A stretch of 64,000 bases of DNA, from assembly GCA_963814545.1 (NCBI GenBank), contig CAWFDC010000015.1, forward strand, positions 75,565 to 139,564, written 5' to 3'. This stretch comes from an uncultured Thermoleophilia bacterium (lineage in GTDB: Bacteria > Actinomycetota > Thermoleophilia > UBA2241). Positions within the stretch are counted from its first letter, which is position 1, and each line of letters begins with the position of its first letter. The position numbers were made by a program, and so were the translations under genes. Below the pieces are notes generated by a model that searched no databases, was not told where the DNA came from, and saw nothing but the letters and a program-made list of their open reading frames with translations. Shown in pieces: positions 14,488 to 51,000 of this stretch.

Positions 14488-14518
14488 GACGCGCGGCGGA
14501 GGCCGCGGGGGGCGAGAC

Positions 14519-14550
14519 GCGAGACGCGCGGCGGGGGCCGCGCGTCTCGC
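14519..14550 (+). terminator. GC-rich hairpin downstream of sdhB
   Basis: GCGAGACGCGCGG - CGGGGG - CCGCGCGTCTCGC, a 13-bp stem about 30 nt after the stop. No U tract. Confidence 0.45.
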
Positions 14551-14653
14551 GTGACGAGCTGACGAGCGCCGCGGCGCGGGCCGCAGGGCGAGGGCCGCGT
14601 CCCGCGAGAGTGGGGGCCGCGGGGCGCGAGAGCGGCCGGCGTGCCGGCCGGCG

Positions 14654-15319
14654 TCAGAGACCGTCGCCGGCCGGCACGCCGGCCCCGTCGCGCGCCTGCT
14701 CGAGCGCGTGCCGGATCAGCCCGGCCCAGTAGCGCAGCACCGGCTCGACGTCGAAGGACTGGTCGGCGGCGTACTGCATGGCGAGCCCGTCGCAGACCGC
14801 GACCGTGAGCGCGGTCAGCAGGCGCAGGCGCTCGCGCAGCTCGTCGTCGGCCTCGGGCTCGAGGGCGTAGATGTCGAGCTCGCGGTACCAGTCGAAGAGC
14901 TCCGCCATGCGCGGCCAGAGGCTCGGGTCGCGGATGAGGTTGGGGAAGAGGTCGAAGAAGAGACGGTACTGGCGCAGATTGGTGACCACGCGCAGGTGCT
15001 GCTCGATGAGGATGTCGACGCGGTCGTGGTCGGCGCCGGCCTTCGAGAGCTCGCGCAGCAGGCGGACGTTCTCGTCGTGCACCACCGAGTCGGCGAGCGC
15101 CCCGACCAGCCCGGCCTTGTTGCCGAAGTGGTAGCGGATCGAGGCCTTGTTCTCGCCGGCCTCGGCGGCGATCGCCTCGAGGGTGAGGCCCTTGAAGCCC
15201 TCGCGGCCGAGCACGCGCCGCGCGGCGGCGAGGATGCGCCGCGCCGTCGGCGACAGCTCGGCCGCCGCGTCGTCGGTGACCAGGCTCGCGCCCCGGACGC
15301 GGATCCCGTTGTCGGTCAT
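14654..15319 (-). CDS. TetR/AcrR family transcriptional regulator
   Basis: N-terminal HTH GFKGLTLEAIAAEAGENKASIRYHFGNKAGL. Start chosen at MTDNGIRV (15319). Divergent from the methylamine operon. Confidence 0.85.
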   Translation of the reverse strand: MTDNGIRVRGASLVTDDAAAELSPTARRILAAARRVLGREGFKGLTLEAIAAEAGENKASIRYHFGNKAGLVGALADSVVHDENVRLLRELSKAGADHDRVDILIEQHLRVVTNLRQYRLFFDLFPNLIRDPSLWPRMAELFDWYRELDIYALEPEADDELRERLRLLTALTVAVCDGLAMQYAADQSFDVEPVLRYWAGLIRHALEQARDGAGVPAGDGL

Positions 15320-15410
15320 CGGTGGTGCTCTCCGTCGGTCGTGGCCCCGGAGCGGCCGCGCCGCAGCGGGCGGCCGTTCTCCGGGTGCAGCCTGCCCCAT
15401 CGGCGCGCTG

Positions 15411-15438
15411 TTGACAACCCCCCGGGGCGACCTAGAAT
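15411..15438 (+). promoter_or_regulatory. Near-consensus sigma-70 promoter driving the SBP-mtbB-mttB operon
   Basis: TTGACA (15411-15416) - 16 nt - TAGAAT (15433-15438) in a locally lower-GC patch, about 195 nt upstream of the SBP start codon. Confidence 0.5.
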
Positions 15439-15449
15439 TGCCCGCGAAG

Positions 15450-15465
15450 TCATCCAACCGGATGA
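15450..15465. promoter_or_regulatory. Inverted repeat, candidate TetR operator
   Basis: TCATCC-AACC-GGATGA, 12 nt downstream of the -10 element, in the tetR / operon divergent region. Confidence 0.3.
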
Positions 15466-15633
15466 ATAGACGGTCGGACGGCTTCGACAGGGGGGCCGGG
15501 CTAAGCCCGGCGGCCTCGACGAGTGCGCGGTGTGGCCATCAGCAGCGGGGCCCGGTCCGTCGTCGCGCGCCTCGCCGGGGCACGTTCCGAGGCGCCCTCG
15601 TGCGCTCGCGCGAGGGCGGGAGAAGGGGGAAGG

Positions 15634-16830
15634 ATGACTATGACCAGCACCAGCAGACCTCCGGGGGGCGGCGTGCGCGACGAGCTCGAGAGGATCACGG
15701 GGGCCGTCGCCCACGGGGAGCTCACGCGACGGCAGTTCATCGAGCGCGGCGTGGCGCTCGGCCTCTCGGTGGGGGCGCTCGGCACGGTCCTCGCCGCCTG
15801 CGGCGACGAGGAGACCGCCCAGGAGACGCCGCAGGCGTGGGACACCACGCTGCCCGAGCAGATCCACATCTACAACTGGTCCGACTACATGTCGCCCGAG
15901 TGCCTCGAGAACTTCGAGGCCGAGTACGGGGTCAAGGTCCGCGAGAGCTACTACGACGGCAACGAGTCGATGTACGCCAAGCTGCAGGCGGGGGCGACCG
16001 GGTACGACGTCATCTTCCCGACCGACATGTGGGTCACGATCCTGCGCAAGAGCGACCTGCTCCAGCCGCTCGACATGGCGCTGATCCCGAACTTCGCCAA
16101 CGTCACCCAGGAGGTCTTCCAGAAGCCGGCCTTCGACAACCCCGACACCCAGGACGGCGAGAAGTACTCGGTGCCGTACATGTTCGGCACGACCGGCTAC
16201 GCGGCGACGCTGGCCAAGGTGCCGGCGCCGCAGGACTCGTGGAACCAGCTCTGGGACCCGGCGTTCGAGCGCCAGATCTCGATGCTCAACGCCCCGCGCG
16301 AGACGCTCGGGGTCGGGCTCATCAAGCTCGGCTACTCGCCGAACACCACGAGCCAGGAGGAGCTCGACCAGGCGGTGCTGCAGCTGACCGACCAGAAGCC
16401 CCTGGTGCTCAAGTACGACTCCACGAACACGCGGCGCAGCATCGTCGAAGGTCTCGCCCTGACGCACTGCTGGGACGGCGACGTCGCTCTGGCCGTCAAG
16501 GCGATCCCGACGGAGAACGTCAGCTACGTGCTGCCCAGCGAGGGCTACATCGTGTGGGCCGACGGCATCGCGATCCCGAAGTCGGCCGCCAATCCGTACG
16601 CCGCCCACCTCTTCCTCAACTTCATGCTCGACCCGAAGAACGTGGGCGCGGCGGCCGACTACATCGGCTACCAGCCGGTCGTGACCGCGGGCATGGACTA
16701 CGTGACCAACGAGACCCAGGTCGCCATGCGCCCGAGCGACGAGGTGATCGAGGCGGGCTATCTCGCCGAGGACGTCGGTGACTTCCAGCGCAATTACGAC
16801 GACGCCTGGCGCGACGTCGTGAGCGCCTGA
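15634..16830 (+). CDS. PotD/PotF-family (polyamine-type) ABC substrate-binding lipoprotein with Tat signal; no permease or ATPase adjacent
   Basis: ATG 15634 after GGGGGAAGG. Twin-arginine signal plus lipobox TRRQFIERGVALGLSVGALGTVLAAC. PotD-like core IHIYNWSDYMSPECLENFEAEYGVKVRESYYDGNESMYAKLQAG, YDVIFPTDMWV. Confidence 0.8.
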   Translation: MTMTSTSRPPGGGVRDELERITGAVAHGELTRRQFIERGVALGLSVGALGTVLAACGDEETAQETPQAWDTTLPEQIHIYNWSDYMSPECLENFEAEYGVKVRESYYDGNESMYAKLQAGATGYDVIFPTDMWVTILRKSDLLQPLDMALIPNFANVTQEVFQKPAFDNPDTQDGEKYSVPYMFGTTGYAATLAKVPAPQDSWNQLWDPAFERQISMLNAPRETLGVGLIKLGYSPNTTSQEELDQAVLQLTDQKPLVLKYDSTNTRRSIVEGLALTHCWDGDVALAVKAIPTENVSYVLPSEGYIVWADGIAIPKSAANPYAAHLFLNFMLDPKNVGAAADYIGYQPVVTAGMDYVTNETQVAMRPSDEVIEAGYLAEDVGDFQRNYDDAWRDVVSA

Positions 16831-16969
16831 CGACGAAACGGCGGCCGGCGCGGCGCGACGTCGTGCGCGCCTGAGGACCATTGGCGGGCCGGCGCGGCAC
16901 TCGTACCCGCCGCGCCGGCCGGCCACGACGGGACGGCAATCCCCGACAGGGAGAGGACGGGAGAGGGGC

Positions 16970-18394
16970 TTGGACGACAGGATACTGACCCGCATGGGTG
17001 ACGGCTCGCTCGTCGAGACGACGCGCGCCCAGCTGCGCGCCGACGTCGAGGACGGCACCCGGCAGGCGGCGCGCCGCGCCAAGGTGCCGCCGCTCGAGCA
17101 GGGCGAGCTCGACCACCTCGAGGACATCTTCTGCTCGAACGCGCGCTTCACCGGCGTCGACCTCGGCGACGAGGTCATCATGAGCTACGACGGGTCGGGC
17201 AACGCCGACCTCGGCTCGCGCATGACCGAGATGCTCGCCTACCAGACGCACCAGGGCGCCGACATGCTCGAGCTCTGGCACATCGACTACTCGTACAAGG
17301 CCATCAAGACGATCCTCTCGTTCGAGGCCCACGAGATGAAGATGAGCCAGCTCAACCTGACGATCCCCATGCAGTACGGGGCGATGCCCGATCTGGGCCG
17401 GTACTCGAAGCCAGACGGCCCCATCCCGAACTGGTCCGAGCTCCTGCCGCTGGGACGCATCGAGGAGGCGCGGGAGGCGCAGCTCGAGGCCGGCGAGATG
17501 GCCACGCACGACATGCTCTTCGTCGCCGATGGCATGGTCGAGGCGGGCACCGACGGCCTCGACTTCGACACCGCCGGCGCCGCCGGCGACGGCGACTTCC
17601 TCGCCACCCTCAACGCGGTCGAGAAGATCCGCGCCAAGCACCCGCACGTGGGCATCGAGGTCGGCATGGCGAGCGAGTTCGTGCTCGGCATGCACGGCGA
17701 GCTCGAGTACAGGGGCGAGCGGCTCGCCGGCATGTGGCCGCACCAGCAGGTCAAGGCGGTGGCGGCGGCCGGCGGCACGATCTTCGGGCCGGCCGTGAAC
17801 GTCAACACGCGCCAGTCGGTGGCCTGGAACGTGAGCCGCGCCTGCACCCTGGTGAAGCGCTGCTGCGAGGAGTCGCCGATCCCCGTGCACATGAACGTCG
17901 GCATGGGCGTCGGCGGCGTGCCGATGACCGCGTACCCGCCGGTCGACGCCGTCTCGCGGGTCTCGAAGGCGCTCGTCGACGTGACCCGGATGGACGGCTT
18001 GTAGGTCGGCGTGGGCGACCCTGTGGGCATGTCGCTGGCCCACACGCTCGCCTCGGGCATGGGCGGGATGCGCGCCGCCGGAGACCTTGTGGCGCGCATG
18101 CAGATGACCCGGGGGATGCGGCTCAGTGAGGCCAAGGCGTACGTCGCCGGGAGGCTCGGCGTCTCGACCCTCGACCTCGTCGACCCCGTCGTCATGCACG
18201 ACGTGCGCGCCGAGCTCGGTCTCGGGCGCATCACCGTGCAGGAGCTGACCTACGCCGACCAGCCCTACGCGATCGAGGCCAAGTTCCGGATCAGCGAGGT
18301 GCTGGACATCCCGATCAACAGCGTCGAGCGCTTCGCCGCGCGCGCCGGGCTGGGGGCGCCGCGCGTGTCCGCCGCCGGCGGCGCGGCGGGCTGA
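16970..18394 (+). CDS. mtbB: Dimethylamine:corrinoid methyltransferase MtbB with in-frame UAG (18002-18004), predicted pyrrolysine
   Basis: ORFs 16970..18004 and 18011..18394 are in the same frame, separated only by TAG. Sequence is MtbB-like throughout (LTRMGDGSLV, HIDYSYKAIK, FDTAGAAGDGDF, GMWPHQQ, NVGMGVGGVPM, ...[41 protein letters not shown]). TTG start after GGGAGAGGGG. Confidence 0.9.
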
Positions 18395-18413
18395 GAGCCC
18401 CGGAGGTGCTTGA

Positions 18414-19883
18414 GTGAAACGCAATCTGCACGCAGGACACCGGCGCAGCGGGGGGTTCAGCCTCAACGTCTTCACCGAGGCCGAGATGGACTCGATCCAC
18501 CTCGCGACCCTCGAAGTGCTCGAGCGCACCGGCGTCTTCGTCGAGGCCGACGAGGCGATCGACATCTTCACCGACGCCGGCTGCCGCGTCGACCGCGAGC
18601 GGCGCGTGGTCCGGATCCCGCCGCACCTGGTCGAGGACGCGATCCGCTCGGCGCCGAGCCGCTTCACGCTCTGCGGGCGCGACCCGAAGAACGACTTCGT
18701 CCTGGAGCCGGGTCGCGTCGCCTTCACCAACTTCAGCGAGGGCATCCGCCTGATCGACCCGTTCAGCGGCGAGTACCGCGACCCGACCAAGAAGGACATC
18801 GGTGACATCGCCCGGCTCAACGACTACCTGAGCGAGATGGACACGCACGAGATCTCGGTCGGGGCCAGCGACGCGCCCGCCGAGACCATCTCCGTGCACA
18901 ACAGCGAGCAGCAGCTCCTCAACACGACCAAGCCGATCGGCATCGGGCCGCTCTCGCGCATGGAGAGCATCGCCGTCTTCCGCATGTGCGCCGAGATCGT
19001 CGGCGGCGAGGACGCGCTGCGCGAGCGCCCCATCGTCTACAACGGCGTCTGCCCGGTGAGCCCGCTCAAGCTGCCGCACGAGGTCACCGAGGTGATCATC
19101 GAGACGGCGCGCTGGGGCCTGCCCTGCAACATCCTCTCGATGGCCATGGCCGGGGGCTCGTCGCCCGTGACCCTGGCCGGCACGATGGTCACGCACAACG
19201 CCGAGGTCCTCGCCGGCATCACGCTCTCGCAGCTCGCCGAGCGCGGCGTCCCGGTGATCTACGGCAGCTCGACCACGGCCATGGACCTGAAGCTCGCCGC
19301 GGCCAGCGTCGGTACGCCGGAGCTCGCCATGGTCAGCGCCGCGGTGGCGCAGATGGCGCGCCGCTACCTCCTCCCGAGCTTCGTGGCGGGGTTGTAGGCT
19401 GACTCCAAGGTCGGTGACGCGCAGACCGGTCACGAGAAGACCCTCACCGGGTTGCTGGCAGCGTTGGCAGGGGCCAACCTGATCTACGGGGCGGGGATGA
19501 TCGAATCGGGCGTCACCTTCGACTGCGGGCAGTTCGTCATGGACAACGAGTTCGCGCGCATGATCAAGCACAGCGTCATGGGCATCCCGGTCGACGACGA
19601 GACCCTGGCGGTGGAGGACATCGCCATGGTCGGGCCGTTCGGGGACTTCCTCAGCCTCGACGCGACGCTCAAGCACATGCGCACCCTCAGCCAGCCTGCC
19701 CACCTCGACCGCCGTGTGCGCGAGGACTGGCAAGACCGCGGCGCCACCGACCTGTATGCTCGCTGTACGGCGGAGGCGCGGCAGATCATCGAGGAGTACC
19801 GGCCTGAACCGCTGCCGGACGACGTGGCGCGGCGTATCCACGCCATCGTCGAGGAGACCGACCGGGCGGCGGGTGTGGCCTGA
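18414..19883 (+). CDS. mttB: Trimethylamine:corrinoid methyltransferase MttB with in-frame UAG (19395-19397), predicted pyrrolysine
   Basis: ORFs 18414..19397 and 19452..19883 share a frame, and the gap has no other stop. MttB-like throughout (FSLNVFTEAEMDSIHLATLEVLERTGV, NILSMAMAGGSSPVTLAGTMVTHNAEVLAG, ...[47 protein letters not shown]). GTG start 5 nt after GGAGGTG. Confidence 0.9.
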
Positions 19884-19947
19884 AAGTGACCGGGCGGCTG
19901 GTGTAGCCTGAGACCCGCAGGGCGGCTGGTGCAGCCTGAGACCCGCC
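19864..19947. repeat. 28-bp tandem repeat x3 that begins inside the last codons of mttB and includes its stop
   Basis: Units at 19864, 19892 and 19920: GGGCGGCGGGTGTGGCCTGAAAGTGACC / GGGCGGCTGGTGTAGCCTGAGACCCGCA / GGGCGGCTGGTGCAGCCTGAGACCCGCC. Confidence 0.75.
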
Positions 19948-19985
19948 GGATGGCGGCGCCCGCGACGGGGCGGGCGCCGCCATCC
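19948..19985 (+). terminator. Strong hairpin between mttB and the corrinoid-protein gene (attenuator/terminator or processing site)
   Basis: GGATGGCGGCGCCCGC - loop - GCGGGCGCCGCCATCC, a perfect 16-bp stem. No U tract. It lies 25 nt upstream of the next start codon. Confidence 0.4.
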
Positions 19986-20010
19986 GAGACCGACGACAAG
20001 GAGACAGGAC

Positions 20011-20646
20011 GTGAGCGACCAGTACGGACCACTGAAGCAGGCCGTGATCGACGGCAACGCCGACCTGACGAACGCGCTGGTCCAGGCGGCGCTGGCCCAG
20101 GGGCAGGCGCCCCGCGACATCCTCGAGGGTGCCCTGCTGCCCGGTATGGAGGTCGTCGGCCAGCGCATGAAGAGCGGCGAGTGCTTCATCCCCGAGGTGC
20201 TGCTCTCGGCGCGGGTCATGCAGGGCGCGCTCGACACCCTGCGGCCCCTCCTCGGCGAGGGCGAGGGCGGCGGCCTCGGCACCGTGGTCATCGGCACGGT
20301 CGAGGGCGACCTGCACGACATCGGCAAGAACCTCGTCGGCATGATGCTGTCGGGCGCCGGCTTCGAGGTCGTCAACCTCGGCACCGGGATCACCCCGGCG
20401 CAGTTCGTCGCCGCCGCCGAGGAGCACGGGGCGGCGATCGTCGGCATGAGCGCTCTGCTCACGACGACGATCCCGCGCATGAAGGAGACCATCGACGCCC
20501 TCGCCGCCGCCGGGCTCAGGGACAAGGTCAAGGTCATGATCGGCGGCGCCCCCGTCACCCAGGCCTTCGCCGACGAGATCGGCGCCGACGGTTACGGCGC
20601 CAACGCCGGCGCCGCCGTCGACCGTGCCAAGGCCCTGGTGAAGTGA
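20011..20646 (+). CDS. Corrinoid (cobalamin-binding) methyl-carrier protein, MttC/MtbC type
   Basis: B12-binding DxHxxG motif GTVEGDLHDIGKNLVG, then GMSALLTTT and MIGGAPVT, with an N-terminal helical cap domain. GTG start after AAGGAGACAGG. Confidence 0.9.
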   Translation: MSDQYGPLKQAVIDGNADLTNALVQAALAQGQAPRDILEGALLPGMEVVGQRMKSGECFIPEVLLSARVMQGALDTLRPLLGEGEGGGLGTVVIGTVEGDLHDIGKNLVGMMLSGAGFEVVNLGTGITPAQFVAAAEEHGAAIVGMSALLTTTIPRMKETIDALAAAGLRDKVKVMIGGAPVTQAFADEIGADGYGANAGAAVDRAKALVK

Positions 20647-22103
20647 TGCCGAAGGCCCCCGCCCCGGGGCGCCTGGCGCCCCGCGTCAGCATGCTCACCG
20701 ACGACGCGTTCGCCTACCTGCACGGGCAGACGCTCGAGCTGCTGGCGACCGTCGGCGTACGCTTCGCGAGCCCCCGTGCCCGCGCGCTGCTGCGCGAGGC
20801 GGGCGCCCGGGTCGACGACGAGAGCCTGGTGGTCCGTCTCCCGGCCGAGCTTGTCGAGCGGGCCGTGGCCGCGGCGCCGCACGACGTGCTGCTGGCTGCC
20901 CGCGACGGCGAGCACGACGCCCTGCTCGACCGCTCGCGTACCTTCGTGGGCCACGACGGCATGGGCGCCATGACGATGGACCACCGCACCGGCGAGCGGC
21001 GGCCGTCCACCGACCAGGACCTCTACGAGGCCTGCGTCGTCGCCGACGCCCTCGACGAGCTCGGCTTCTGCTGGTACGTCGCGACGCCCAACGACGCCGT
21101 GCCCGCCGTGCAGTCGCTGCAGGGCATCGTCACCATGCTGCGCGGCTCGGGCAAACACGCGCAGGGCGATCTGAGCGATCCTCTCCTCGTGCCCTACGCG
21201 CTGGAGGCGGCGGCGGCGGCGAGCCCCGGCGGCGTGTGGGACCCGGCGAGGCCGGTCTTCTCGATCGTGTACTGCCCGGTCTCGCCGCTGCAGCACGACG
21301 CCGAGGCCCTCGACGCCGCCATGCTGCTCGCCGAGCAGGGTGTGCCGATCGTCGTCTACAGCCTCGCGCTCGCGGGGGCGACGGCGCCGGTCACGCTCGC
21401 CGGCACCCTGGTGCAGACCAACGCCGAGGTCCTCAGCGGCCTCGTCGCCCTGCAGCTCGCGGCGCCGGGCAGCCCCTTCGTCTACGTCGGCAACTCGAGC
21501 ATCCTGGACATGAAGACCTGCACCTTCGGCGCCTGCGGGCCCGAGGCGCTGCTCTTCAATCTGGCGCTGACCGAGATGGGGCACCGCTACGGCTTCCCCG
21601 TGCTCTCCGGCGGGCTGTCGAGCGACGCCAAGGAGCTCTGCATGCAGTCGGGGTACGAGGGCGGCACGATGGCGCTCCTCAGCACTCTCGCCCGCGCCGA
21701 CCTCTTCGTCGGCGTCGGCATGCTCGACTCGGCGCAGTTCCTCTACCTGCCGAAGATGGTGCTCGACGCCGAGGTCGTCGCCCAGTGCGCTCACGTGGCG
21801 CGCGGCGTGCAGCTCGACGACGAGAGCGTGATGCTCGAGGTGTCGGCGCGGATCGGCCCGGGCGGCCACTTCCTCGGCGCGCGCGAGACGAGCTCGTTCC
21901 TGCGCCGGGGCGAGCACCACCAGCTCAAGGTCTTCCAGCGCGGCTCGTACGAGGCGTGGCGGGCGCACCCGGTCCCCGAGGCCGAGCGGGCGACGGCCGT
22001 GGTCGACGAGATCCTCGCCGCGCACCGGCCGTCGGCCTTGCCCCCGGGCGGCGAGGAGCGCATGGCCGCCGCCGTGGCCGCCGCCGCGGAGAGGCGCGAC
22101 TAG
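20646..22103 (+). CDS. MttB-superfamily methyltransferase, non-pyrrolysine paralog (quaternary-amine type candidate), translationally coupled to the corrinoid protein
   Basis: ATG overlaps the upstream TGA. 485 aa uninterrupted, paralogous to 9600..11060 (VYCPVSPLQHDAEALDAA, ATAPVTLAGTLVQTNAEVLSG, GPGGHFLGARET). Ser at the Pyl-equivalent position (GGL-S-SDAK). Ends in TAG. Confidence 0.85.
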   Translation: MPKAPAPGRLAPRVSMLTDDAFAYLHGQTLELLATVGVRFASPRARALLREAGARVDDESLVVRLPAELVERAVAAAPHDVLLAARDGEHDALLDRSRTFVGHDGMGAMTMDHRTGERRPSTDQDLYEACVVADALDELGFCWYVATPNDAVPAVQSLQGIVTMLRGSGKHAQGDLSDPLLVPYALEAAAAASPGGVWDPARPVFSIVYCPVSPLQHDAEALDAAMLLAEQGVPIVVYSLALAGATAPVTLAGTLVQTNAEVLSGLVALQLAAPGSPFVYVGNSSILDMKTCTFGACGPEALLFNLALTEMGHRYGFPVLSGGLSSDAKELCMQSGYEGGTMALLSTLARADLFVGVGMLDSAQFLYLPKMVLDAEVVAQCAHVARGVQLDDESVMLEVSARIGPGGHFLGARETSSFLRRGEHHQLKVFQRGSYEAWRAHPVPEAERATAVVDEILAAHRPSALPPGGEERMAAAVAAAAERRD

Positions 22104-22191
22104 AGCGACCCCTCGAGCACGGCGAGCAGCACGCCGGCCAATGTGACTAGAGCGACCCGTCGAGCACGGCGAGCAGCACGCCGGCCAGCGT
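22098..22191. repeat. 47-bp tandem duplication covering the stop codons of two convergent genes
   Basis: GACTAGAGCGACCCCTCGAGCACGGCGAGCAGCACGCCGGCCAATGT / GACTAGAGCGACCCGTCGAGCACGGCGAGCAGCACGCCGGCCAGCGT, with 3 mismatches. Copy 1 holds the TAG of the MttB paralog. Copy 2 holds the 3' end of the EamA gene on the other strand. Confidence 0.8.
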
Positions 22192-23100
22192 GACCAGGGC
22201 GGCGACGACCAGCCGTGCGCGTACGCGCTCGCCGAGGGCGACGAAGCCGAAGGCGATGGCGAAGACCGGCGTCGTCGCCATGATGAGCATGGTGAGCACG
22301 GGGCCGATGTGCTGGACACAGAGGTAGAAGAGCACGGTCACGCAGGTCTCGAGCACGCCGGTGACGGCGATCAGGCGCACGGCGGTGCGGCGCTGCGCGG
22401 GTGACAGGGCGTGCGGCGTCAGCGGCATGCGGCGCACCAGGATGATCGCCCCCAGGATCGCCATGCCGAGCAGCTGGCTCTGGATCATCATCGTCGCCGT
22501 GACGCGCCCGTAGGCCTGGCTCGCGAGGTCGATGAGGATAGGGCCGAGGCCCCAGCCGGCGGCGGTGACCAGCGACAGGACGATGACCACGGCGCGCGGG
22601 GTAGCCGCGCCGCCGGCGGTCGCCGGCGGCGCGGCTACCCCGCGCTCGAACGCCGGCCCGCCGAGGGCGTCGACGGTGACGTCCGGCTCGTCCTCCATCC
22701 AGCGCGAGATCAGGACGACGCCGGTCATGACCACGACCAGGCCGACGAGCGTGGGTGCGCCGATCGCCGCCCCGAGGATCGCGAAGGCGAAGAGCGCGGT
22801 CCAGACCGGGTCCGTGCTGGCGATGGGCGCGACCACACTGACCTTGCCGACGCGCAGCGCGTAGTAGTAGGTGCTGAACGCGATCAGCCAGGTGACGATC
22901 GACGAGACGGCGATGTAGCCGGCCGCAGCCCAGTTGCTGCCGAAGCCGTTGGACCAGAGGCCGAAGACGGTGAGGGGCACGGTGAGCACGGCGATGCCGA
23001 TCGCGGACACGCCGCGCAGGAAGAAGTTGAGGGCCAGCGGACTGATGTACTCGAGGGTCCGCTTGTTGACGATGATGACGACCGCCCAGAGCGCCGTCAT
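22147..23100 (-). CDS. EamA/DMT-family transporter
   Basis: 317 aa, about 10 hydrophobic helices in two EamA-like halves (VIIVNKRTLEYISPLALNFFLRG; LGPILIDLASQAYGRV). Confidence 0.8.
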   Translation of the reverse strand: MTALWAVVIIVNKRTLEYISPLALNFFLRGVSAIGIAVLTVPLTVFGLWSNGFGSNWAAAGYIAVSSIVTWLIAFSTYYYALRVGKVSVVAPIASTDPVWTALFAFAILGAAIGAPTLVGLVVVMTGVVLISRWMEDEPDVTVDALGGPAFERGVAAPPATAGGAATPRAVVIVLSLVTAAGWGLGPILIDLASQAYGRVTATMMIQSQLLGMAILGAIILVRRMPLTPHALSPAQRRTAVRLIAVTGVLETCVTVLFYLCVQHIGPVLTMLIMATTPVFAIAFGFVALGERVRARLVVAALVTLAGVLLAVLDGSL

Positions 23101-27550: not shown

Positions 27551-27628
27551 ACGCCCGGCGCCCCTCGTCAGCGCTGACGCCCGGCGCTCCTCGTCAGCGC
27601 TGACGCCTGGCGCTCCTCGTCAGCGCTG
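27551..27628. repeat. 26-bp tandem repeat x3 ending on the stop codon of the minus-strand DUF1786-like gene
   Basis: ACGCCCGGCGCCCCTCGTCAGCGCTG / ACGCCCGGCGCTCCTCGTCAGCGCTG / ACGCCTGGCGCTCCTCGTCAGCGCTG. Each unit carries the palindrome TCAGCGCTGA, which gives a stop triplet on both strands. Confidence 0.85.
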
Positions 27629-28777: not shown

Positions 28778-28824
28778 GCCGGCCCGCCCGCCGGCGTCCG
28801 GCGCCGCGGAGCCGCCGCAGCAGC

Positions 28825-30454: not shown

Positions 30455-30486
30455 CGGGGACAAGCAGAAAGAGGGGCAGAGGCCAG

Positions 30487-44252: not shown

Positions 44253-45116
44253 TTACGCCATCACCGCGTGCGCGTCGATGAGGTGCTTGCTGACGCCGAT
44301 CGTCTTCTCGTCGAGGCCGATGGCGCGGCCGACGAGCTGGCTGAGGAAGAGCACGGGCACGCCGGCCCACGAGCTGTCCTTGCGCGCGATCTCGCTCTGG
44401 CGGCCGTCGAGGTTGACCTGGCAGAGCGGGCAGGCGACGGCGATCGCCTCGGCGCCGCAGTCGCGCGCGTCGCTCACGATGCGCCCCACGAGCCCGTCGA
44501 CGATCTCCTGCTCGGTGAGCGCCAGCGCGGCGCCGCAGCAGTCGGTCTTGTAGTTCCAGTCGACCGCCTCGCAGCCGAGGGCCTCGACGACGGCGTCCAT
44601 GTGCGTCGGGTACTCGGGGTCCTCGGCGAGGGTGACCTCGGGCGGGCGTGTGAGCAGGCAGCCGTAGTAGCAGGCCACCTTGAGGCCCTTGAACGGGCGC
44701 TTCACCTTGGCGGCGAGCGCCTCGAGGCCGACCGCGTCGTGATAGACGTCGACCAGGTTCTGCACGGTGACGCCGCCCTCGTAGCCGCGCCCGACGACCG
44801 AGCGCACGTCGTCGGCGACCGCCGGGTCGCGGGCGACCTCGTGCGCGCCGGTCTTGAAACGGCTGAAGCAGGCGGCGCAGGGCACGGCCACGGCGTCGAG
44901 CTTCAGGTCCTTCTCGACCTTGACCAGCTCGTTCACTGGCAGCGCCGTGGCGAGCAGGCGGTTGATCGAGTGCGCCGCGGTGTTGCCGCAGCACTCCCAG
45001 CCGGGGATCTCGACGAGGTCGAGGTCGAGCGTCCGCGCCGTGGCCCTGAAGCTGGCGTCGAACTCGCCCGAGGTGCCGTGCAGCGAGCAGCCGGGGTAGT
45101 AGGCGATACTCGTCAC
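44253..45116 (-). CDS. hdrB: Heterodisulfide reductase subunit B-like (two CCG domains)
   Basis: YYPGCSLHG, WECCGNTAAH, VPCAACF, YYGCLLTRP, TDCCGAALAL and VACPLCQVNLD. The GTG start overlaps the hdrC stop (GTGA). TAA stop. Confidence 0.9.
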   Translation of the reverse strand: MTSIAYYPGCSLHGTSGEFDASFRATARTLDLDLVEIPGWECCGNTAAHSINRLLATALPVNELVKVEKDLKLDAVAVPCAACFSRFKTGAHEVARDPAVADDVRSVVGRGYEGGVTVQNLVDVYHDAVGLEALAAKVKRPFKGLKVACYYGCLLTRPPEVTLAEDPEYPTHMDAVVEALGCEAVDWNYKTDCCGAALALTEQEIVDGLVGRIVSDARDCGAEAIAVACPLCQVNLDGRQSEIARKDSSWAGVPVLFLSQLVGRAIGLDEKTIGVSKHLIDAHAVMA

Positions 45117-45763
45117 GACGCACCTCCGCCCTCGTCGCCGGACGGCGCGGCCGCGCCCTTGCCGGACGGTGGGGCCGCGTCCTTGCCGGCCCGCGCCGCG
45201 CTCTTGGCCTCGCGGGCCCGGGTGAGACTCTCGGCGGTCTTGACCATGCGCTTCATGGCGTCGGTGTCGCCCTTCTTGAGCGTGGGGTTGATCTTGCCCT
45301 TGAGCAGCATCTTGGGCCCGAGCGAGAGCCACTCGAGGGCGCCCTTGGGCCGGCGCAGGGCGTCGCGCGCGATGAGCTCGACCTCCCACATGCGGCCCCA
45401 GCGGACGAACGAGTTGTAGTTGAGCTTGAGCATGGCCGCCGACGGGGCGTCCGGGTGCACCTTGCCCTCGCGCCAGGCGATGATCTTGAGCTCGTCCATG
45501 ATCGCCGCGATGTCGATGCCCTGCGGGCAGCGCGTGGTGCAGGTCTGGCACCCGGTGCACAGCCAGATGAACTTGTCGTCGAAGATCATGTCGTACTGTC
45601 CGAGCTGGACGGCACGCATGATCTGCGCCGGGTGCATGCCGGCGTGCTCGGCCACCGGGCACCCGGCCGTGCAGCGCTTGCACTGGTAGCAGAGGTAGGG
45701 GTTCTCGGCGCAGCCGGCCCCCACCTTGGTGGCGAGGACGCCGCTCGGTGTGCAGGTCGTCAT
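45113..45763 (-). CDS. hdrC: Heterodisulfide reductase subunit C-like (2x[4Fe-4S])
   Basis: CYQCKRCTAGCP and CTGCQTCTTRCP. ATG 45763 lies 5 nt after AGGAGGTG. Lys/Ala/Gly-rich C-terminal tail. Confidence 0.9.
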   Translation of the reverse strand: MTTCTPSGVLATKVGAGCAENPYLCYQCKRCTAGCPVAEHAGMHPAQIMRAVQLGQYDMIFDDKFIWLCTGCQTCTTRCPQGIDIAAIMDELKIIAWREGKVHPDAPSAAMLKLNYNSFVRWGRMWEVELIARDALRRPKGALEWLSLGPKMLLKGKINPTLKKGDTDAMKRMVKTAESLTRAREAKSAARAGKDAAPPSGKGAAAPSGDEGGGAS

Positions 45764-45772
45764 CCCCACCTC

Positions 45773-46717
45773 CTAGGCCACTGCCGGCCGCGGCATGAGG
45801 CCCGCGGCCTCGACGATCTCGGGCACCGCGGACTCCCACTCGATGGCCATGATGTGGACGCCGGCGACACCCTCGATCTCGGTGAACTCCTTGATCATCT
45901 CGACGGCGATCTTCTTGCCCTCGGCCTGCTGCGGGGCGCCCTTCTCGGGGACGGCCATGCGATCGACGATGTCCTGCGGGACGTCGATGCCGGGAACGAA
46001 CTTCTGCATGTAGCGCGCCCCGCCGACGCCCTTCAGCGGCGTGATGCCGGCGAGGATCTTGATCTCCTTGTGCAGGCCCAGGGCGCGCACCTCCTCCATC
46101 CACTTCTTGAACTTGGGGACGTTGAAGATGCACTGGGTCTGCATGAAGTCGGCGCCGGCCTCGATCTTCTTCTTGAGGCGCAGGGCGCGGAGGTCGAAGG
46201 GGTCGGCGAAGGGGTTCTCGGCGCAGCCGATGTAGAGCGGCGGCGCGACCGTCATCTCCTCGCCGCACTGGAACTTCTTCTCGTCGCGCATGTCCTTGTA
46301 CATCTTGATGAGGTTGATGGCGTCGAGGTCGTGCACGCCCCTGGCCTCGGGGTGGTTGCCGAAGCTCAGGTGGTCGCCGGTGAGGCAGAGGATGTTCTTG
46401 ATGCCCAGTGTGGCGGCGCCGAGGATGTCGGCCTGCATCGCCAGACGGTTGCGGTCGCGGCAGGTCATCTGCATGATCGCCTCGAGCCCGTTCTGCTGGG
46501 CGGTGTGGCCCGACGCCAGGGAGCACACGCGGACCACGGCGGTCTGGTTGTCGGTGATGTTGACGGCGTCGACGTAGCCCTTGAGGATCTTGGCCTTCTC
46601 CTCGATGACGGTGACGTCGGCGCCCTTGGGCGGGCCGCACTCGCCGGTGACGGCGAACTTGCCTTCGGCGAGGATCTTCTCGAGGTTGGAGCCGGCCTTG
46701 TATCCGTTGTCCCTCAT
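45773..46717 (-). CDS. metF: Methylenetetrahydrofolate reductase, acetogen-type MetF
   Basis: KFAVTGECGPPKGAD, VDAVNITDNQ, MTCRDRN, ILCLTGDH, FMQTQCIFN. The start overlaps the metV stop (ATGA). Stop is TAG. Confidence 0.9.
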   Translation of the reverse strand: MRDNGYKAGSNLEKILAEGKFAVTGECGPPKGADVTVIEEKAKILKGYVDAVNITDNQTAVVRVCSLASGHTAQQNGLEAIMQMTCRDRNRLAMQADILGAATLGIKNILCLTGDHLSFGNHPEARGVHDLDAINLIKMYKDMRDEKKFQCGEEMTVAPPLYIGCAENPFADPFDLRALRLKKKIEAGADFMQTQCIFNVPKFKKWMEEVRALGLHKEIKILAGITPLKGVGGARYMQKFVPGIDVPQDIVDRMAVPEKGAPQQAEGKKIAVEMIKEFTEIEGVAGVHIMAIEWESAVPEIVEAAGLMPRPAVA

Positions 46718-47397
46718 ACCGGCTTCGCCTCCTCGCGCACCATCTTGCGGGGGCCGCCGGAGCTGCTCTTGCTCCAGTTCTTCGGCGGCCGGTCGGTGAA
46801 CATGAGCTCTTCGCGGCCCTGTGCCTTGAGGCGCTCCCAGATGAGGGCCCAGGCGCACTCGATCTCTTCCTTGTCGGGCCCGGTGACTTCGCACAGGCCG
46901 TCGTGCGAACCGCCGCAAGGGCCGTTCATGAGGCTCTTGCTGCAGCGCACGACGGGGCAGATGCCGCCGGTCAGGCCGATGCGGCACTCGCCGCAGGCGA
47001 CGCAGCGCTCGAGCCACACGGCGTGCTCCTGCGGCATGCCCAGCATGTTGGTGTCGACGGCCGGCACGACGAGCCTGGGGGCGAACTTCTCGGCCATGCT
47101 CTGGATGCCGATGCCGCAGGCCATGCTGAGGACGACGTCGGCCTCCTCGACCTTGGCGGCGATCATGTCGAGGTACTCCCACTCGCACTGCCTGATGGCG
47201 GCGGTGTGCTCGACCTCGATCTCGCGGCCGTCGGCCTGTGCCTTCATGCGCAGCTCGCTGGCGAGGATCTCGGCCTCTTTCTCGCCTCCGGTGAGGCAGA
47301 TGGCGACGCAGGTGTCGCAGCCGGCGACGAGGATCTTCTTGTGTCCGGCGACGAGGTCCAGGATCTCGTCGAACGGCTTGCGTTCAGCGGTGATCAT
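46714..47397 (-). CDS. metV: MetV, zinc-ribbon/MTHFR-C-terminal-like small subunit of methylene-THF reductase
   Basis: ILVAGCDTCVAICLTGG, SMACGIGIQ and CVACGECRIGLTGGICPVVRCSKSLMNGPCGG. ATGA overlap with mvhD. Confidence 0.85.
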   Translation of the reverse strand: MITAERKPFDEILDLVAGHKKILVAGCDTCVAICLTGGEKEAEILASELRMKAQADGREIEVEHTAAIRQCEWEYLDMIAAKVEEADVVLSMACGIGIQSMAEKFAPRLVVPAVDTNMLGMPQEHAVWLERCVACGECRIGLTGGICPVVRCSKSLMNGPCGGSHDGLCEVTGPDKEEIECAWALIWERLKAQGREELMFTDRPPKNWSKSSSGGPRKMVREEAKPV

Positions 47398-48086
47398 TCG
47401 GCGGGTCCCTTCTCGGTGGTGGCGGAGGCGGTGTCGGGCGCCGGCGCGGCGGCGCCGGCCGGCGCCCCCTCGGGCATGGCCACGTCGCCGGCGGCCTCAC
47501 GGGCCGCGGCATGCGGCGACACGTCGTGGCGCCGCAGCGGGTTCGGCCCGAGGGCCTTGATCCGGTCGGTGAACTCGGTCGCGACGCGGGCGAACTCGGC
47601 GCCCATCGCCGACGACATGTTGTACATCTCCACGCGCTCGGGCTCGATGCCCACCTCGGCGAGGAGGGCCTTGACGTGGTCGACGCGCTTGCGCGCCCAG
47701 AGGTTGCCCTTGAGGTAGTGACACTCACCCTCGAGGCAGCCGGCGGCGTAGACGCCGTCGGCGCCGGCCTCGATCGCGCGCATGAGGTGGATGACCTCGA
47801 GCTTGCCCGTGCAGGGCAGCTTGATCATGCGGATGTTCGACGGGTATTGCAGGCGCATGCTGCCCGCCAGGTCGGCGGCGGCGTAGGCGCAGTAGTGACA
47901 GGCGAACACGATGATCTCGGGCTCGAAGTCGGGGTCGACGGGCTTCTTCGGCGCCTCGGTCTCGGCGGCCTCGGCGCCCTCGGGTGCGTCGGCGACGGCG
48001 GTCGGGGCGGAGGCCCCCGCCGTCGCCTGAGCCGTCGTGGCTGCCTGCGCCGTCGTGGCCGCGGTCACCTTCGGCTCCTCGGCCAT
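47394..48086 (-). CDS. mvhD: MvhD/FlpD-like (methyl-viologen-reducing hydrogenase delta subunit) electron-transfer protein with Ala/Thr-rich N- and C-terminal extensions
   Basis: IIVFACHYCAYAAADLAG, IKLPCTGKLEVIHLMRAIEAGADGVYAAGCLEGECHY. ATG 1 nt after the hdrA stop, preceded by GGAGGTGA. Confidence 0.85.
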   Translation of the reverse strand: MAEEPKVTAATTAQAATTAQATAGASAPTAVADAPEGAEAAETEAPKKPVDPDFEPEIIVFACHYCAYAAADLAGSMRLQYPSNIRMIKLPCTGKLEVIHLMRAIEAGADGVYAAGCLEGECHYLKGNLWARKRVDHVKALLAEVGIEPERVEMYNMSSAMGAEFARVATEFTDRIKALGPNPLRRHDVSPHAAAREAAGDVAMPEGAPAGAAAPAPDTASATTEKGPAE

Positions 48087-48087
48087 C

Positions 48088-51000
48088 TCAGCTCACCTCC
48101 ATGAAGAGCGCCTCTTCCTTGGCGAAGACCTGCGCGTCGGTGTAGTGGTGCAGGGTGATCGCCTTGACGGGGCACTCGCTGACGCACACGCCGCAGCCCT
48201 GGCAGGCGGCCGCCTCGATCTTGGCCTTCTTCGTGTCGGCCTCGATGATCGGCACCTCGTACGGGCAGATGCGCACGCAGGTGAGACACGCGGCGCACTT
48301 CTCCTGGTCGACCTCAGCGACGACGCCGCCGGCTTTGAGGGCCGGCTTGGCCAGGATGGCCGCGGCCCTCCCGGCGGCGGCGTAGGCCTGGCTGATCGTC
48401 TCGTCGATGCTCTTCGGGTAGTGCGCCGCCCCGGCGAGGAAGAGGCCCTCGCTGGAGAAGTCGACGGGCCGCAGCTTGACGTGCGCCTCGAGGTAGAAGC
48501 CGTCGGCGGTGAGCGGCACCTTGAGGAGTTTGGAGAGCGCTTCGCCGCCCTCGGCCGGGACCGCCGGCGTGGCGAGCACGAGCAAGTCGACCGGCAGCGT
48601 GATGTCGCGCCGCAGGAAGGGGTCGCGGTAGGCGACCTCGACCCTGCCGTTGGCGCTGACCACCGGCTTCGAGTCGTCGTCGTAGCGCGTGAAGACGACG
48701 CCGAGCTCGCGCGCCCGGGTGTAGTACTCCTCGAGGAGGCCGAAGGTGCGGACCTCCTTGAACCACACGTAGACGGGACGATCGGGGTCCTTCTCCTTGA
48801 GGGCGATGGCGTTCTTGATGCTCTGCTGGCAGCAGGTGCGCGAGCAGTAGGGTTTGTGCTCGTCGAGGGAGCCGGCGCAGAGGACGAAGCCGACGGCGCC
48901 GGCCGCGTGGAGCGCGGGATCCTCGTCCTTGAGCATGCGCTCGAGCTCCATGCCGGTCACGACCTTGGGGCTCGTGCCCAGACCGAAGAGCTCGGGCCGG
49001 TCCTCGTGGGAGCCGGTGGCGACGACGACGACGCCATGGTCGACCGGCGTGCGGGCGCCGTCCTTGGCTTTGACGACGCTCGAGAAGTTGCCGATGAAGC
49101 CGTGGAAGTCGACGAGTTCGCTCTCGAGGTGGATCCTGACGTTGGGGTTGTCGATGAGGCGCTGCTCGAGCTGCGCGACGAGCGCCGTCGGGTCGCCGCC
49201 GCGGATCGTGCGCCCGAGCTCGAGGACGTGGCCGCCGAGGCGCGGCGAGCGCTCCACGAGGTGTACCTCGTGGCCCATCTCGCCGAGCGCGGCGGCGGCC
49301 GTCATGCCGGCCACGCCGCCGCCGATCACGAGGGCGGCGTGGGTGAGCGGCACGTCGACCTTGTAGAGCGGCTCGAGCATGCGCGCCCGGGCGACCGACA
49401 TCCTGACGAGGTCTTTCGCCTTGTCGGTCGCCTTCTCGGGCTCGTTCGCGTGCACCCACGACGCCTGGTCGCGGATGTTGGCCATCTCGAAGAGGAACGG
49501 GTTGAGCCCGGCCTCGCGGAGCGTGTCCTGGAAGATGGGCTCGTGGGTGCGCGGCGTGCAGCTCGCGACCACGACGCGGTTGAGCTGGTGCTCCTCGATC
49601 TTCTCCTTGATCAGCGAGAGCGAGTCGCTCGAGCATGTGTACAGCGTGTCGGTGGCGAACTCGACGCCCGGAAGCTGCTGGGCGTAGTCGGCGACGCTCT
49701 CGACCCCGATCACGCCGGCGATGTTGGAGCCGCAGTGACAGACGAAGACGCCGATGCGCGGCTCCTCTTCGGAGACCGCGCGCTCGGCCGGGTACTCCCT
49801 CTCGACCGTGAGCGTGTCGCGCGAGTCGGCGAGGCCGGTCATCACCTGGGCGGCCGCGGCCGAGGCCTGGGCGACCGAGTCGGGGATGTCCTTGGGCTCG
49901 CCGAACGGCCCGGCCACGAAGACGCCCTTGCGGCTCGTCGCCAGCGGCTCGAATTCGTCCAGCTCGCAGAAGCCGTGGCGGTTGAGGGCGATGCCGAGGT
50001 GGCCGGCCGCCTCCTGCGCCTTGCGTGCGGGCTCGAGGCCGACCGAGAGCACGACCATGTCGAACCGGCTGGTCCGCATGTCGCCGCTCTCGTCCTCCCA
50101 GGTGATCAGGAGGTCGCCGGTCTTCGGGTCTTCCTTGATGGTCGAGGGCCGCGAACGCAGGAACTTGACCCCGCGGTCGACGGCGCGCTGGTAGAAGTCG
50201 TCGAAACCCTTGCCCTGGGCGCGCATGTCCATGAGGAAGACGGTGGGCTCGCAGTCGGCCACGTGGTCCATGGTGAGCATGGCCTGCTTGTTGGCGAACA
50301 TGCAGCAGACGCTCGAGCAGTACTCGTGCTCCTGGTCGCGCGAGCCGACGCACTGGATGAAGGCGACCTTCTTCGGGTGCCCGCCGTCGCTCGGGCGCTT
50401 CACGTCACCGACGGTCGGGCCTGAGGCGCTCAGCATGCGCTCGTACTCGAGCGCCGAGAGGACGTTGGGGTAGCGTCGGTAACCGTACTCGCTCTTCGCG
50501 CCGGGATCGTGAGCGTCGTAACCGGTCGCCAGGACGACGGCGCCGACGTCGATCTCGAGCTCGCGGTCACGCTCTTCATGGAGGAGGGCGCCGGGCCCGC
50601 AGGCGCGCACGCACTCCAGGCACTCCGAGCAGACTGCGCACTGGAGGCAGCGCTTCGCCTCGGCGATCGCTTGCGCCTCGGTGTAGCCCCGGCGCACCTC
50701 GACCCAGCTGCGGCGGCGCTCGGCGCCGTCGTGCTCGGGCATGCGCACGCGCGGCGCGGGGGCCGTCGCGGCCAGCGTCTCGTCGTCGGGGCGAGCCTCG
50801 GGGAGCGGGTCTTCCCACAGCGCCACGAGCTTCTCGCCGCGGAGGTGGTTGTGGATGGCCGCCGCGCCTTTGCGGCCGGCGGCGATCGCCTCGATCGCGG
50901 TGAGCGGGCCGGTCGGCGCGACGTCGCCGCCGGCGAAGACCCCGGGGCGGCCCGTGGCCATGGTCGCGGGGTCGGTCTTGACCGTGCCGCGCTCTATCTC

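Follow-up and report, generated by a model that had tools for sequence, protein, structure and literature searches.

Methylamines are precursors of methane and climate-relevant nitrogen compounds, and, to our knowledge, work on their anaerobic demethylation has been confined almost entirely to methanogens, a few Firmicutes and some Deltaproteobacteria. For Methanosarcina barkeri, the methylamine methyltransferase systems MttB/MttC and MtbB/MtbC were reportedly described by Paul, Ferguson and Krzycki in 2000. More recently, metagenome-assembled genomes (MAGs) of Actinobacteriota were reported (PMC10805028) to express mtbB and the form of mttB that contains pyrrolysine (Pyl), a rare amino acid and the 22nd of the genetic code. 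Here we describe a locus at positions 14654-22103 of a 64-kb stretch of DNA (72% GC; hereafter the window) from an uncultured soil bacterium of the class Thermoleophilia (phylum Actinomycetota). A TetR-family regulator gene (tetR) is followed there, on the opposite strand, by the genes for a PotD-like substrate-binding lipoprotein (SBP), the dimethylamine (DMA) methyltransferase MtbB, the trimethylamine (TMA) methyltransferase MttB, a corrinoid protein and MttB2, a member of the MttB superfamily without Pyl.

With a probability of roughly 0.7, we interpret this locus as a TetR-controlled module for the utilization of methylated amines. A Pyl-dependent TMA/DMA methyltransferase cluster is of a known kind, and such genes in Thermoleophilia have already been noticed by databases and by one paper. 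The novelty lies in how the cluster is built: one corrinoid gene for three genes of substrate-specific methyltransferases (MT1), a TetR regulator with a defined candidate operator, and a dedicated orphan subfamily of PotD-like SBPs that tracks mtbB. Literature searches combining pyrrolysine with Thermoleophilia, mtbB with substrate-binding protein, and Thermoleophilia with trimethylamine methyltransferase returned nothing on this type of operon.

Gene content and conservation of the cluster

Genes were called from open reading frames (ORFs) guided by the G + C content at third codon positions (GC3), translated, and assigned to families with Pfam and NCBIfam. All six genes were recovered where a preliminary description of this DNA had placed them, and every identity given in it was correct (Table 1). 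MtbB exceeds the equivalog cut-off of its NCBIfam model (TIGR02368, 441.4 versus 369.1 bits) and matches Pfam Dimeth_Pyl (PF09505) with 580 bits over positions 5-461 of 463, and MttB likewise exceeds its own cut-off (TIGR02369, 686.6 versus 525 bits).

Relatives were collected by scanning one genome per species with the N-terminal part of MtbB, which yielded 68 loci (L001-L068). Nearly all of them belong to Thermoleophilia or to unclassified Actinomycetota MAGs, mainly from Microflora Danica (MFD), plus palsa/fen, SMAG and Zod (Zod_maxbin) genomes; three MAGs found among L010, L011 and L014 (palsa_645, palsa_647 and fen_672) presumably come from Stordalen Mire, judging by their names. The best four of the 68 loci were 96-98% identical to the query, and the window DNA is 97% identical to L001 and approximately 90% identical to L002 and L004 over 21 kb. 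A divergent tetR followed by SBP-mtbB-mttB-corrinoid-mttB2 is kept in L002-L004 (90-98% amino acid identity), in L005-L007 and L064 (64-85%) and in L051, and the same order was found in independent metagenome contigs (L077-L082). This gene order recurs in more than 15 independent contigs, which is far beyond chance.

The uptake genes of this cluster are modular. In a sister group (L008, L011, L012 and L058) the PotD-like SBP is missing, and the interval from the corrinoid gene to mttB2 holds a different uptake gene: a permease of the APC (amino acid/polyamine/organocation) family in L011, L012 and L058, the stop of which overlaps the mttB2 start (ATGA), and an SBP_bac_5 protein in L008. At the other end of the cluster, ORF clustering showed that the position of the convergent EamA gene is common to nine sources, the window and eight related loci.

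Some details of the preliminary description required correction. It had characterized the junctions as short or overlapping and the last two genes as coupled by an ATGA overlap. The corrinoid gene and mttB2 do overlap, but the sequence is AAGTGATGCC, that is, a 1-nt TGATG or a 4-nt GTGA overlap, and the spacings from the SBP gene to mtbB (139 nt) and from mttB to the corrinoid gene (127 nt) are not short. A further non-Pyl gene of the MttB family (mttB3) is located upstream of the six-gene region. For tetR, the ATG at 15319 was chosen as the start rather than the ORF start at 15457, with a GGAGAG ribosome-binding site 7 nt ahead.

Table 1. Positions of the cluster and of associated features in the window
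Feature	Position	Strand	Basis
tetR, TetR-family regulator (221 aa)	14654..15319	-	Pfam TetR_N, E 2e-13
Promoter-like site: -35 TTGACA (15411-15416), 16-nt spacer, -10 TAGAAT (15433-15438)	15411..15438	+	11/12 consensus positions
Palindrome TCATCC-AACC-GGATGA (6-4-6), candidate TetR operator, 11 nt past the -10 box	15450..15465	.	unique in the window
PotD/PotF-family substrate-binding lipoprotein (SBP), 398 aa	15634..16830	+	Pfam, NCBIfam, twin-arginine signal, lipobox
44-nt tandem duplication of the SBP 3' end (16808-16895) and 17-bp GC hairpin (16882-16925)	16808..16925	+	SBP-mtbB gap
mtbB, dimethylamine:corrinoid methyltransferase; Pyl codon TAG 18002-18004	16970..18394	+	TIGR02368
mttB, trimethylamine:corrinoid methyltransferase; Pyl codon TAG 19395-19397	18414..19883	+	TIGR02369
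Three 28-nt repeats at/after the mttB 3' end and perfect 17-bp hairpin (19947-19986)	19864..19986	+	mttB-corrinoid gap
Corrinoid (B12-binding) protein, MtbC/MttC/MtgC type, 211 aa	20011..20646	+	Pfam B12-binding and B12-binding_2
mttB2, non-Pyl MttB-superfamily methyltransferase, 485 aa	20646 (or GTG 20643)..22103	+	Pfam MTTB, 244 bits
mttB3, second non-Pyl MttB-family gene, 486 aa	9600..11060	+	Pfam MTTB, 240 bits
EamA/DMT-family membrane transporter, convergent neighbour	22147..23100	-	Pfam EamA
HdrA-like flavoprotein (1,481 aa), MvhD, MetV, MetF and Fer4/CCG (HdrCB-like) cluster	44253..52533	-	Pfam

In-frame UAG codons and the pyrrolysine system

TAG stands at the Pyl position in 100 of 100 alignable mtbB copies from the 68 loci and in 33 orthologues of mttB. 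Two Rfam elements begin at these codons in the window: the first base of PYLIS_2 (18002-18101, 77 bits) is that of the mtbB TAG, and the first base of PYLIS_3 (19395-19494, 76 bits) is that of the mttB TAG. Downstream of the TAG the frame is kept in both genes, GC3 is 0.91-0.97, and the ratio of nonsynonymous to synonymous substitution rates (dN/dS) is 0.08-0.32 in mtbB and 0.07-0.36 in mttB, not above the values upstream; the segments 3' of the codon are under purifying selection.

If the TAGs were instead true stops and UAG were not decoded as pyrrolysine, mtbB and mttB would be split or decaying, or would give shortened proteins. The window itself offers some ground for this view, as it contains neither pyl genes (Pfam on ~65 ORFs) nor tRNA-Pyl (a tRNA scan found no tRNA of any kind), TAG is the normal stop of eight other window genes, and sdhA carries frameshifts. 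The last gene (12065-13780, plus strand) is split by three of them, from frame 2 to 3 near 12509, from 3 to 1 near 13310-13320 and from 1 to 2 near 13488, while in L004 SdhA is intact (567 aa) and matches the pieces with 89-98% identity; the frameshifts represent either assembly indel errors or a very recent pseudogene, and are a warning on the sequence quality of the window. True stops are nevertheless very improbable in view of the exact position of TAG in all 100 mtbB copies and in the 33 mttB homologues, the constraint on the in-frame downstream segments, the complete pyl system in related Thermoleophilia genomes, and the expression recorded in published metatranscriptomes (PMC10805028). 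Decoding of both codons as Pyl is the preferred reading.

The eight genes ending in TAG, of about 58 in the window, include mttB2 and metF. The next in-frame stop after these terminal TAGs lies 15-219 codons further on (219 in the case of metF), so that no close back-up stop exists. Because TAG serves as a normal stop without a near back-up, Pyl insertion or read-through must be limited, regulated or inefficient. Together with the many UAG-containing mtbB paralogues, this use of TAG provides a natural case of the handling of an ambiguous codon by bacteria.

At least two to six mtbB paralogues are found per Thermoleophilia MAG, often in tandem (e.g., L015 7808-13053, L019 10001-15535 and L025 17-11383). 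This complement exceeds any that we know of in methanogens and hints at substrates other than dimethylamine. In ten loci, a 76-nt tRNA-Thr(UGU) is located directly beside or between mtbB paralogues in a recurrent SurE-LigA-...-mtbB setting (L010 6645-6720, L015 9307-9382, L018 11483, L019 11549, L020 3448, L022 9275, L023 6679, L026 5019, L031 4624 and L047 5159). A functional tie between this tRNA and mtbB was considered and set aside, as the arrangement probably reflects conserved synteny (SurE-LigA-tRNA-Thr-mtbB), odd as this location is for a tRNA.

A complete pyl system is present in other genomes of the class Thermoleophilia. A query for the PylS catalytic domain matched L016 (11668-12525) right beside mtbB, with 38% identity (E 6e-57). 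No pylT was found in the 280-nt gap between mtbB and pylSc of L016, where scanning for an anticodon loop of the sequence CTCTAAA was equally negative, and ARAGORN and Rfam detected no tRNA-Pyl in L001-L068 or the window. The PylSc of L016 has 2,018 homologues, some of which bear the NCBI name 'pyrrolysine--tRNA(Pyl) ligase large subunit [Thermoleophilia bacterium]'. In one 8-kb stretch (L069 10001-18200; also in L070 and L071), pylSc, a corrinoid protein gene, pylSn, tRNA-Pyl(CUA), pylD, pylC and pylB occur together; all five Pyl proteins of this stretch exceed the NCBIfam equivalog cut-offs, and it shares a 2.0-Mb contig with the mtbB/mttB locus L059.

In Thermoleophilia, the gene for an N-acetylmuramoyl-L-alanine amidase extends with its 3' end into pylSc (L069-L073, L016 and L157-L160). 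The pylSc gene belongs to a conserved block, TldD/PmbA-HTH (helix-turn-helix)-OsmC-BacA-amidase-pylSc, that is set apart from pylB-pylC-pylD-tRNA-Pyl, with pylSn, the corrinoid protein gene and a radical-SAM-like gene between the two. The division into pylSn and pylSc seen in L069-L071 is the same as that of the bacterial pyl systems of Desulfitobacterium and Acetohalobium; in contrast to the latter, the pylSc of these other genomes of the class is detached from pylBCD-pylT and placed in the amidase block. The NCBI-sourced PylSc matches that were looked up belong to assemblies other than those of the window genus (CAWBRS01, JAFGAW01, DATHSP01 and JAZBOM01).

The binding protein and the control of the cluster

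The SBP carries a twin-arginine motif (TRRQFIERG) of the twin-arginine translocation (Tat) type and a lipobox (LAAC), and matches the Pfam families SBP_bac_8/6/1/11. Its best NCBIfam matches, PotD (178.5 versus 582 bits) and PotF (146.9 versus 636), lie far under the equivalog cut-offs, and PotD-like PDB entries are matched with E values of 1e-52 to 1e-39. The approximately 30 residues before the twin-arginine motif (window 15634-15735, SBP residues 1-34) are conserved in the subfamily as ELE+I..VA.G.LTRRQFIER, which is unusual for the n-region of a signal peptide and may represent a chaperone- or Tat-specific recognition element.

The protein was aligned with Escherichia coli PotD, using a reference checked to be identical to 1POT, and compared at the 13 residues through which PotD contacts spermidine. 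Seven are identical (W34, Y37, E171, W229, W255, D257 and Y293), three differ conservatively (T35S, E36D and S83T), and three are changed (Y85M, D168A and Q327A); positions 85, 168 and 327 are also variable within the SBP clade. The SBP and E. coli PotD/PotF are thus members of one family (E 1e-47 to 1e-52) with a common aromatic box (W34, Y37, W229, W255 and Y293) and E171/D257, but the SBP differs from the E. coli proteins in being a Tat lipoprotein, in having no adjoining potABC genes and in being tied to mtbB.

This tie was evident in a survey of 80 metagenome loci obtained by an SBP-alignment search. At 50% identity or more, 16 SBPs had at least 400 nt of downstream sequence and were informative; in 14 of these 16, mtbB, or a non-Pyl mttB-like gene and then mtbB, begins 44-202 nt downstream, an association that is new here. 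At 42-50% identity, a gene of the MttB/MtbB family lies within 3 kb in 14 of 42 cases, and an ATP-binding cassette (ABC) ATPase is near none of the 42. At 42% or less, none of the eight SBPs has a methyltransferase nearby, whereas in six, on contigs of lower GC content, an ABC ATPase is encoded some 2.1 kb upstream; an ABC ATPase upstream of the SBP is the classic layout of a pot operon. Above this boundary, such an ATPase is near only 2 of the 72 relatives (identity of at least 42%). Homologues at 53% identity (L074 and L075) also show the TetR-SBP-mtbB arrangement without ABC genes beside the SBP, and across paralogous loci the SBP-mtbB adjacency is kept from 94% down to approximately 50% SBP identity. 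In these two loci (L074 12401-13869 and L075 10880-12375), mtbB is followed by genes for a Fer4 protein, a CCG-domain (HdrB-like) protein and a DeoC-type aldolase, and the Fer4/CCG pair, lying beside a corrinoid methyltransferase, might serve redox reactivation.

Judging by these contexts, the SBP belongs to a distinct, systematically orphan subfamily linked to methyltransferases, and it probably captures an amine. The preliminary description had advanced it as an amine receptor; the mtbB linkage, the absence of adjoining ABC genes and the presence of distant homologues in ABC operons bear out its association with the methyltransferases, while the ligand specificity stays at the level of a proposal. 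The same protein could be an ordinary spermidine/putrescine binder that serves a polyamine ABC importer encoded elsewhere, in which case its position beside the methyltransferases would have no functional meaning. Its best NCBIfam and PDB matches (PotD/PotF), the seven retained contact residues and the database names, every one of which says spermidine/putrescine, agree with such a role, and two loci (L085 and L089) have no neighbouring methyltransferase. However, the adjacency to mtbB survives about 50% sequence divergence and extends to paralogous loci with other neighbours, an ABC ATPase is rare at 42% identity or more (2/72) and common at 42% or less (6/8), three of the PotD ligand positions are replaced and variable, and the PotD cut-off is missed widely (178 versus 582 bits). 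An ordinary polyamine binder is thus unlikely, and a receptor for a methylated amine remains our preferred interpretation of the SBP. If true, recognition of small methylated amines by a PotD-type scaffold would add a new specificity to the family and offer a useful scaffold for biosensors.

A broader and more speculative extension is that the PotD-like proteins of approximately 42-95% identity form a hitherto unrecognized subfamily of orphan, extracytoplasmic methylated-amine receptors that co-diversified with the UAG-containing MtbB paralogues, the units of SBP and MtbB (with or without TetR) being substrate-specific capture-and-demethylate modules with a common translocator. We advance this only tentatively and consider it rather doubtful at present; were it true, the MtbB family would act on more than dimethylamine, and soil/wetland Actinomycetota with an expanded genetic code would constitute a substantial overlooked methylamine sink.

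Upstream of the SBP gene, TTGACA/TAGAAT is the sole promoter-like site in 14400-22400. The tetR-SBP intergenic regions were aligned in 23 rows, of which 22 cover the promoter columns (the row of L120 ends short of them), and the TTGACA and TA.AAT columns are conserved across these 22. Beyond the -10 box lies a palindrome (TCATCCAACCGGATGA) that had no match in shuffled sequences. Orthologous loci keep an equivalent palindrome (GTTATCCATCCGGATAAC), and the paralogous TetR/SBP loci L092, L095 and L143 have another palindrome at the same spot. The regulator has an N-terminal TetR HTH domain and is divergent from the SBP gene, with the palindrome in the common intergenic region, and a divergent tetR is conserved in L002-L008, L011, L012, L058, L064 and L077-L091. 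A TetR operator that overlaps the start of transcription would be expected to show this layout, and we infer that TetR binds there.

Whether transcription from this site reaches the methyltransferase genes depends on the stem-loops within the cluster. A long GC hairpin (16-21 bp) directly 3' of the SBP stop is found, with differing sequences, in L002-L006, L064, L077-L079 and L082. It is absent from L007 and L080, where the gap is just 47-50 nt. The second hairpin, between mttB and the corrinoid gene, occurs in the closest relatives only (L002-L004, L077 and L078) and is absent in L005-L082. Because the hairpin after the SBP gene is conserved in most relatives, co-transcription of the SBP gene and mtbB is uncertain. 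The SBP and methyltransferase genes may even constitute separate units, with an intrinsic terminator of the actinobacterial type, lacking a U-tract, after the SBP gene and with mtbB-mttB and corrinoid-mttB2 on their own signals; the locus would then be a cluster rather than one operon. Retention of the hairpin structure despite divergent sequences, the second, perfect hairpin ahead of the corrinoid gene in this genus, and the location of the only promoter-like site upstream of the SBP gene can all be taken in this sense. On the other hand, no promoter-like site lies between the SBP gene and mtbB, the hairpin is absent in L007 and L080, and stem-loops 3' of SBP genes in ABC operons are commonly partial terminators or stabilizers. 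We therefore regard separate units as possible but the less probable arrangement, and favour a single operon in which the hairpin could be a partial terminator or stabilizer, so that the SBP and the enzymes may differ in expression level or transcript.

The 3' ends of three genes of the operon are tandemly duplicated just beyond their stops (16808-16895; 19864-19954; 22098-22123 and 22145-22170). The duplicated units are 44 nt at the end of the SBP gene (two copies) and 28 nt at the end of mttB (three copies), and a 26-nt unit with GACTAG at the mttB2 stop is found again where the convergent EamA gene has its stop.

Corrinoid carrier, absent partners and comparison with known systems

The corrinoid protein contains the domains PF02607 and PF02310, with DLHDIG as its DxHxxG motif, and lies under the cut-offs of the individual subtypes (TIGR02370, 193.8 versus 215.3; MtbC, 194 versus 350; MtgC, 203-213 versus 310-370). 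Its gene is the only one of its kind in the window, and this corrinoid protein may be the carrier common to all three methyltransferases. The third of these, MttB2, has Ser at the Pyl position (TCG in ten and AGC in four orthologues), reaches 367 bits with TIGR02369, under the cut-off of 525, and matched no NCBIfam equivalog. It is 32% identical to the MttB of the window and 51% to MttB3, and belongs to the non-Pyl branch of the MttB superfamily. Characterized non-Pyl members are described in PMC10805028 as demethylating quaternary amines, and a quaternary amine is probably the substrate of MttB2 as well. The coupling of mttB2 to an APC permease in the sister clade fits an organic-cation substrate.

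Among characterized non-Pyl members, MttB2 was compared with MtgB alone, the glycine betaine:corrinoid methyltransferase of Desulfitobacterium hafniense (2qne/9yce). This is its best PDB match (2qne, 204 bits), and both have an ordinary residue at the Pyl position and an adjoining corrinoid gene; the residue is Leu in MtgB rather than Ser, and the score is barely above that of the Pyl-containing MttB of M. barkeri (177 bits). The other non-Pyl gene, mttB3, is located 3.6 kb upstream of tetR. It stands by itself ahead of the sdh genes, without an adjoining corrinoid gene, and its orthologues in L002 and L004 are in synteny with it and likewise encode Ser (TCG) in place of Pyl.

The preliminary description had listed several partners as missing, and all of them are indeed absent from the window. 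No methylcorrinoid:tetrahydrofolate (THF) methyltransferase (MT2), searched for among both pterin-binding and URO-D-type methyltransferases, and no RamA, MtmB or ABC permease/ATPase was detected by Pfam in its ~65 ORFs. Clustering of 1,179 ORFs, drawn from the window together with 67 of the 68 loci, likewise revealed on inspection by eye neither an MT2 of the pterin-binding or URO-D-like kind nor a RamA-like protein as a recurrent neighbour; the recurrent neighbours were GGDEF/HD-GYP proteins, an aldolase, SurE, LigA, sulfate-assimilation genes, a PF04392-type ABC system, SBP_bac_5 proteins and APC permeases. A cluster further along the window (Pfam families Pyr_redox_2/Fer4, FlpD, DUF5981, MTHFR, Fer4_17 and CCG) corresponds to the gene set of an acetogen-type methylene-THF reductase complex, which might oxidize amine-derived methyl-THF and be linked to the operon in this way.

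Further genes downstream of the operon deserve mention. NrdR and then a 739-aa class II-like ribonucleotide reductase with barrel and TSCPD domains are encoded at 29885-32718 (plus strand), the gene stop being TAG; the reductase is probably B12-dependent, which fits a good corrinoid supply in the organism. At 27620-29077 (minus strand), 5.5 kb past the operon and syntenic in L002/L004, lies a gene for a DUF1786 protein ('putative pyruvate formate-lyase activating enzyme'). It was considered as a corrinoid activase and dropped, as nothing links it to reactivation.

In the model that we propose, the TTGACA/TAGAAT promoter, followed by the palindromic operator, would drive the SBP gene, and read-through of the stem-loop would extend transcription into mtbB-mttB-corrinoid-mttB2, the divergent TetR probably repressing until an amine or metabolite is present. 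The Tat-exported SBP, in which the PotD aromatic cage and three carboxylates are kept and the distal pocket appears remodelled, would bind the amine outside the cell and hand it over to a membrane translocator encoded elsewhere. In the cytoplasm, MttB would convert trimethylamine to dimethylamine and MtbB dimethylamine to monomethylamine, both requiring UAG read-through by pylT/pylSn/pylSc/pylBCD located elsewhere in the genome, while MttB2 would demethylate a different substrate, probably a quaternary amine. All three would methylate the Co(I) of the single corrinoid protein; an MT2 and a reductive activase from elsewhere in the genome would close the cycle, and methyl-THF could be oxidized by a complex of the MetFV-Hdr-MvhD type, the genes for which lie 22 kb away.

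Several of the observations reported above weigh against this model. The pyl genes are absent from the window, and the pyl set was not found for the source genome or its closest relatives; TAG is an ordinary stop there, and the sdhA frameshifts reveal indel problems in the sequence. Between the SBP gene and mtbB stands a strong hairpin of conserved structure, and the two may therefore be largely separate transcripts. The SBP is still much like a polyamine binder, in name as in sequence, and its close homologues L085 and L089 have no adjoining methyltransferase. MttB2 is about equidistant from MtgB and MttB, and neither MT2 and RamA nor a translocator is encoded in the 64 kb or was found for the source genome or its closest relatives. 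Against these stand the gene identities, the conservation of TAG with selection on the downstream segments, the synteny, the SBP-mtbB linkage and the pyl system of the class; the parts of the model that we infer are the substrates, the use of one corrinoid carrier by all three enzymes, the ligand of the SBP and the translocator that it serves, the control by TetR and the THF route.

The source of the window shares its phylum, and the gene families concerned, with the Actinobacteriota MAGs that were described from Stordalen Mire (Ellenbogen et al. 2023, PMC10805028). Passages of that article make no mention of transporters, tetrahydrofolate or mtqA, and the operon structure, the link to an SBP, the common corrinoid protein and the pyl genes are not described in them. 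The present locus shows the operon-level wiring of a Pyl-dependent TMA/DMA system in a widespread uncultured class of soil/wetland actinobacteria, and three of its features can be tested directly: an SBP that may bind amines, a TetR regulator for which a candidate operator is defined, and a presumed single corrinoid carrier for three methyltransferases.

Compared to MttB/MttC and MtbB/MtbC of Methanosarcina barkeri (structures 7xcl/7xcm), the window system likewise has MT1 enzymes of the Pyl type, each gene with a single in-frame UAG in the equivalent place, and a corrinoid partner with B12-binding_2 and B12-binding domains encoded alongside. It also differs from the Methanosarcina systems. 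The system in the window is bacterial, lies in DNA of 72% GC and is probably TetR-regulated; one corrinoid gene is present for three MT1 genes, where Methanosarcina has one for each MT1; there is no branch through MtbA and coenzyme M, with THF as the expected acceptor; and in place of permeases of the MttP/MtbP type, uptake is proposed to proceed through a lipoprotein SBP.

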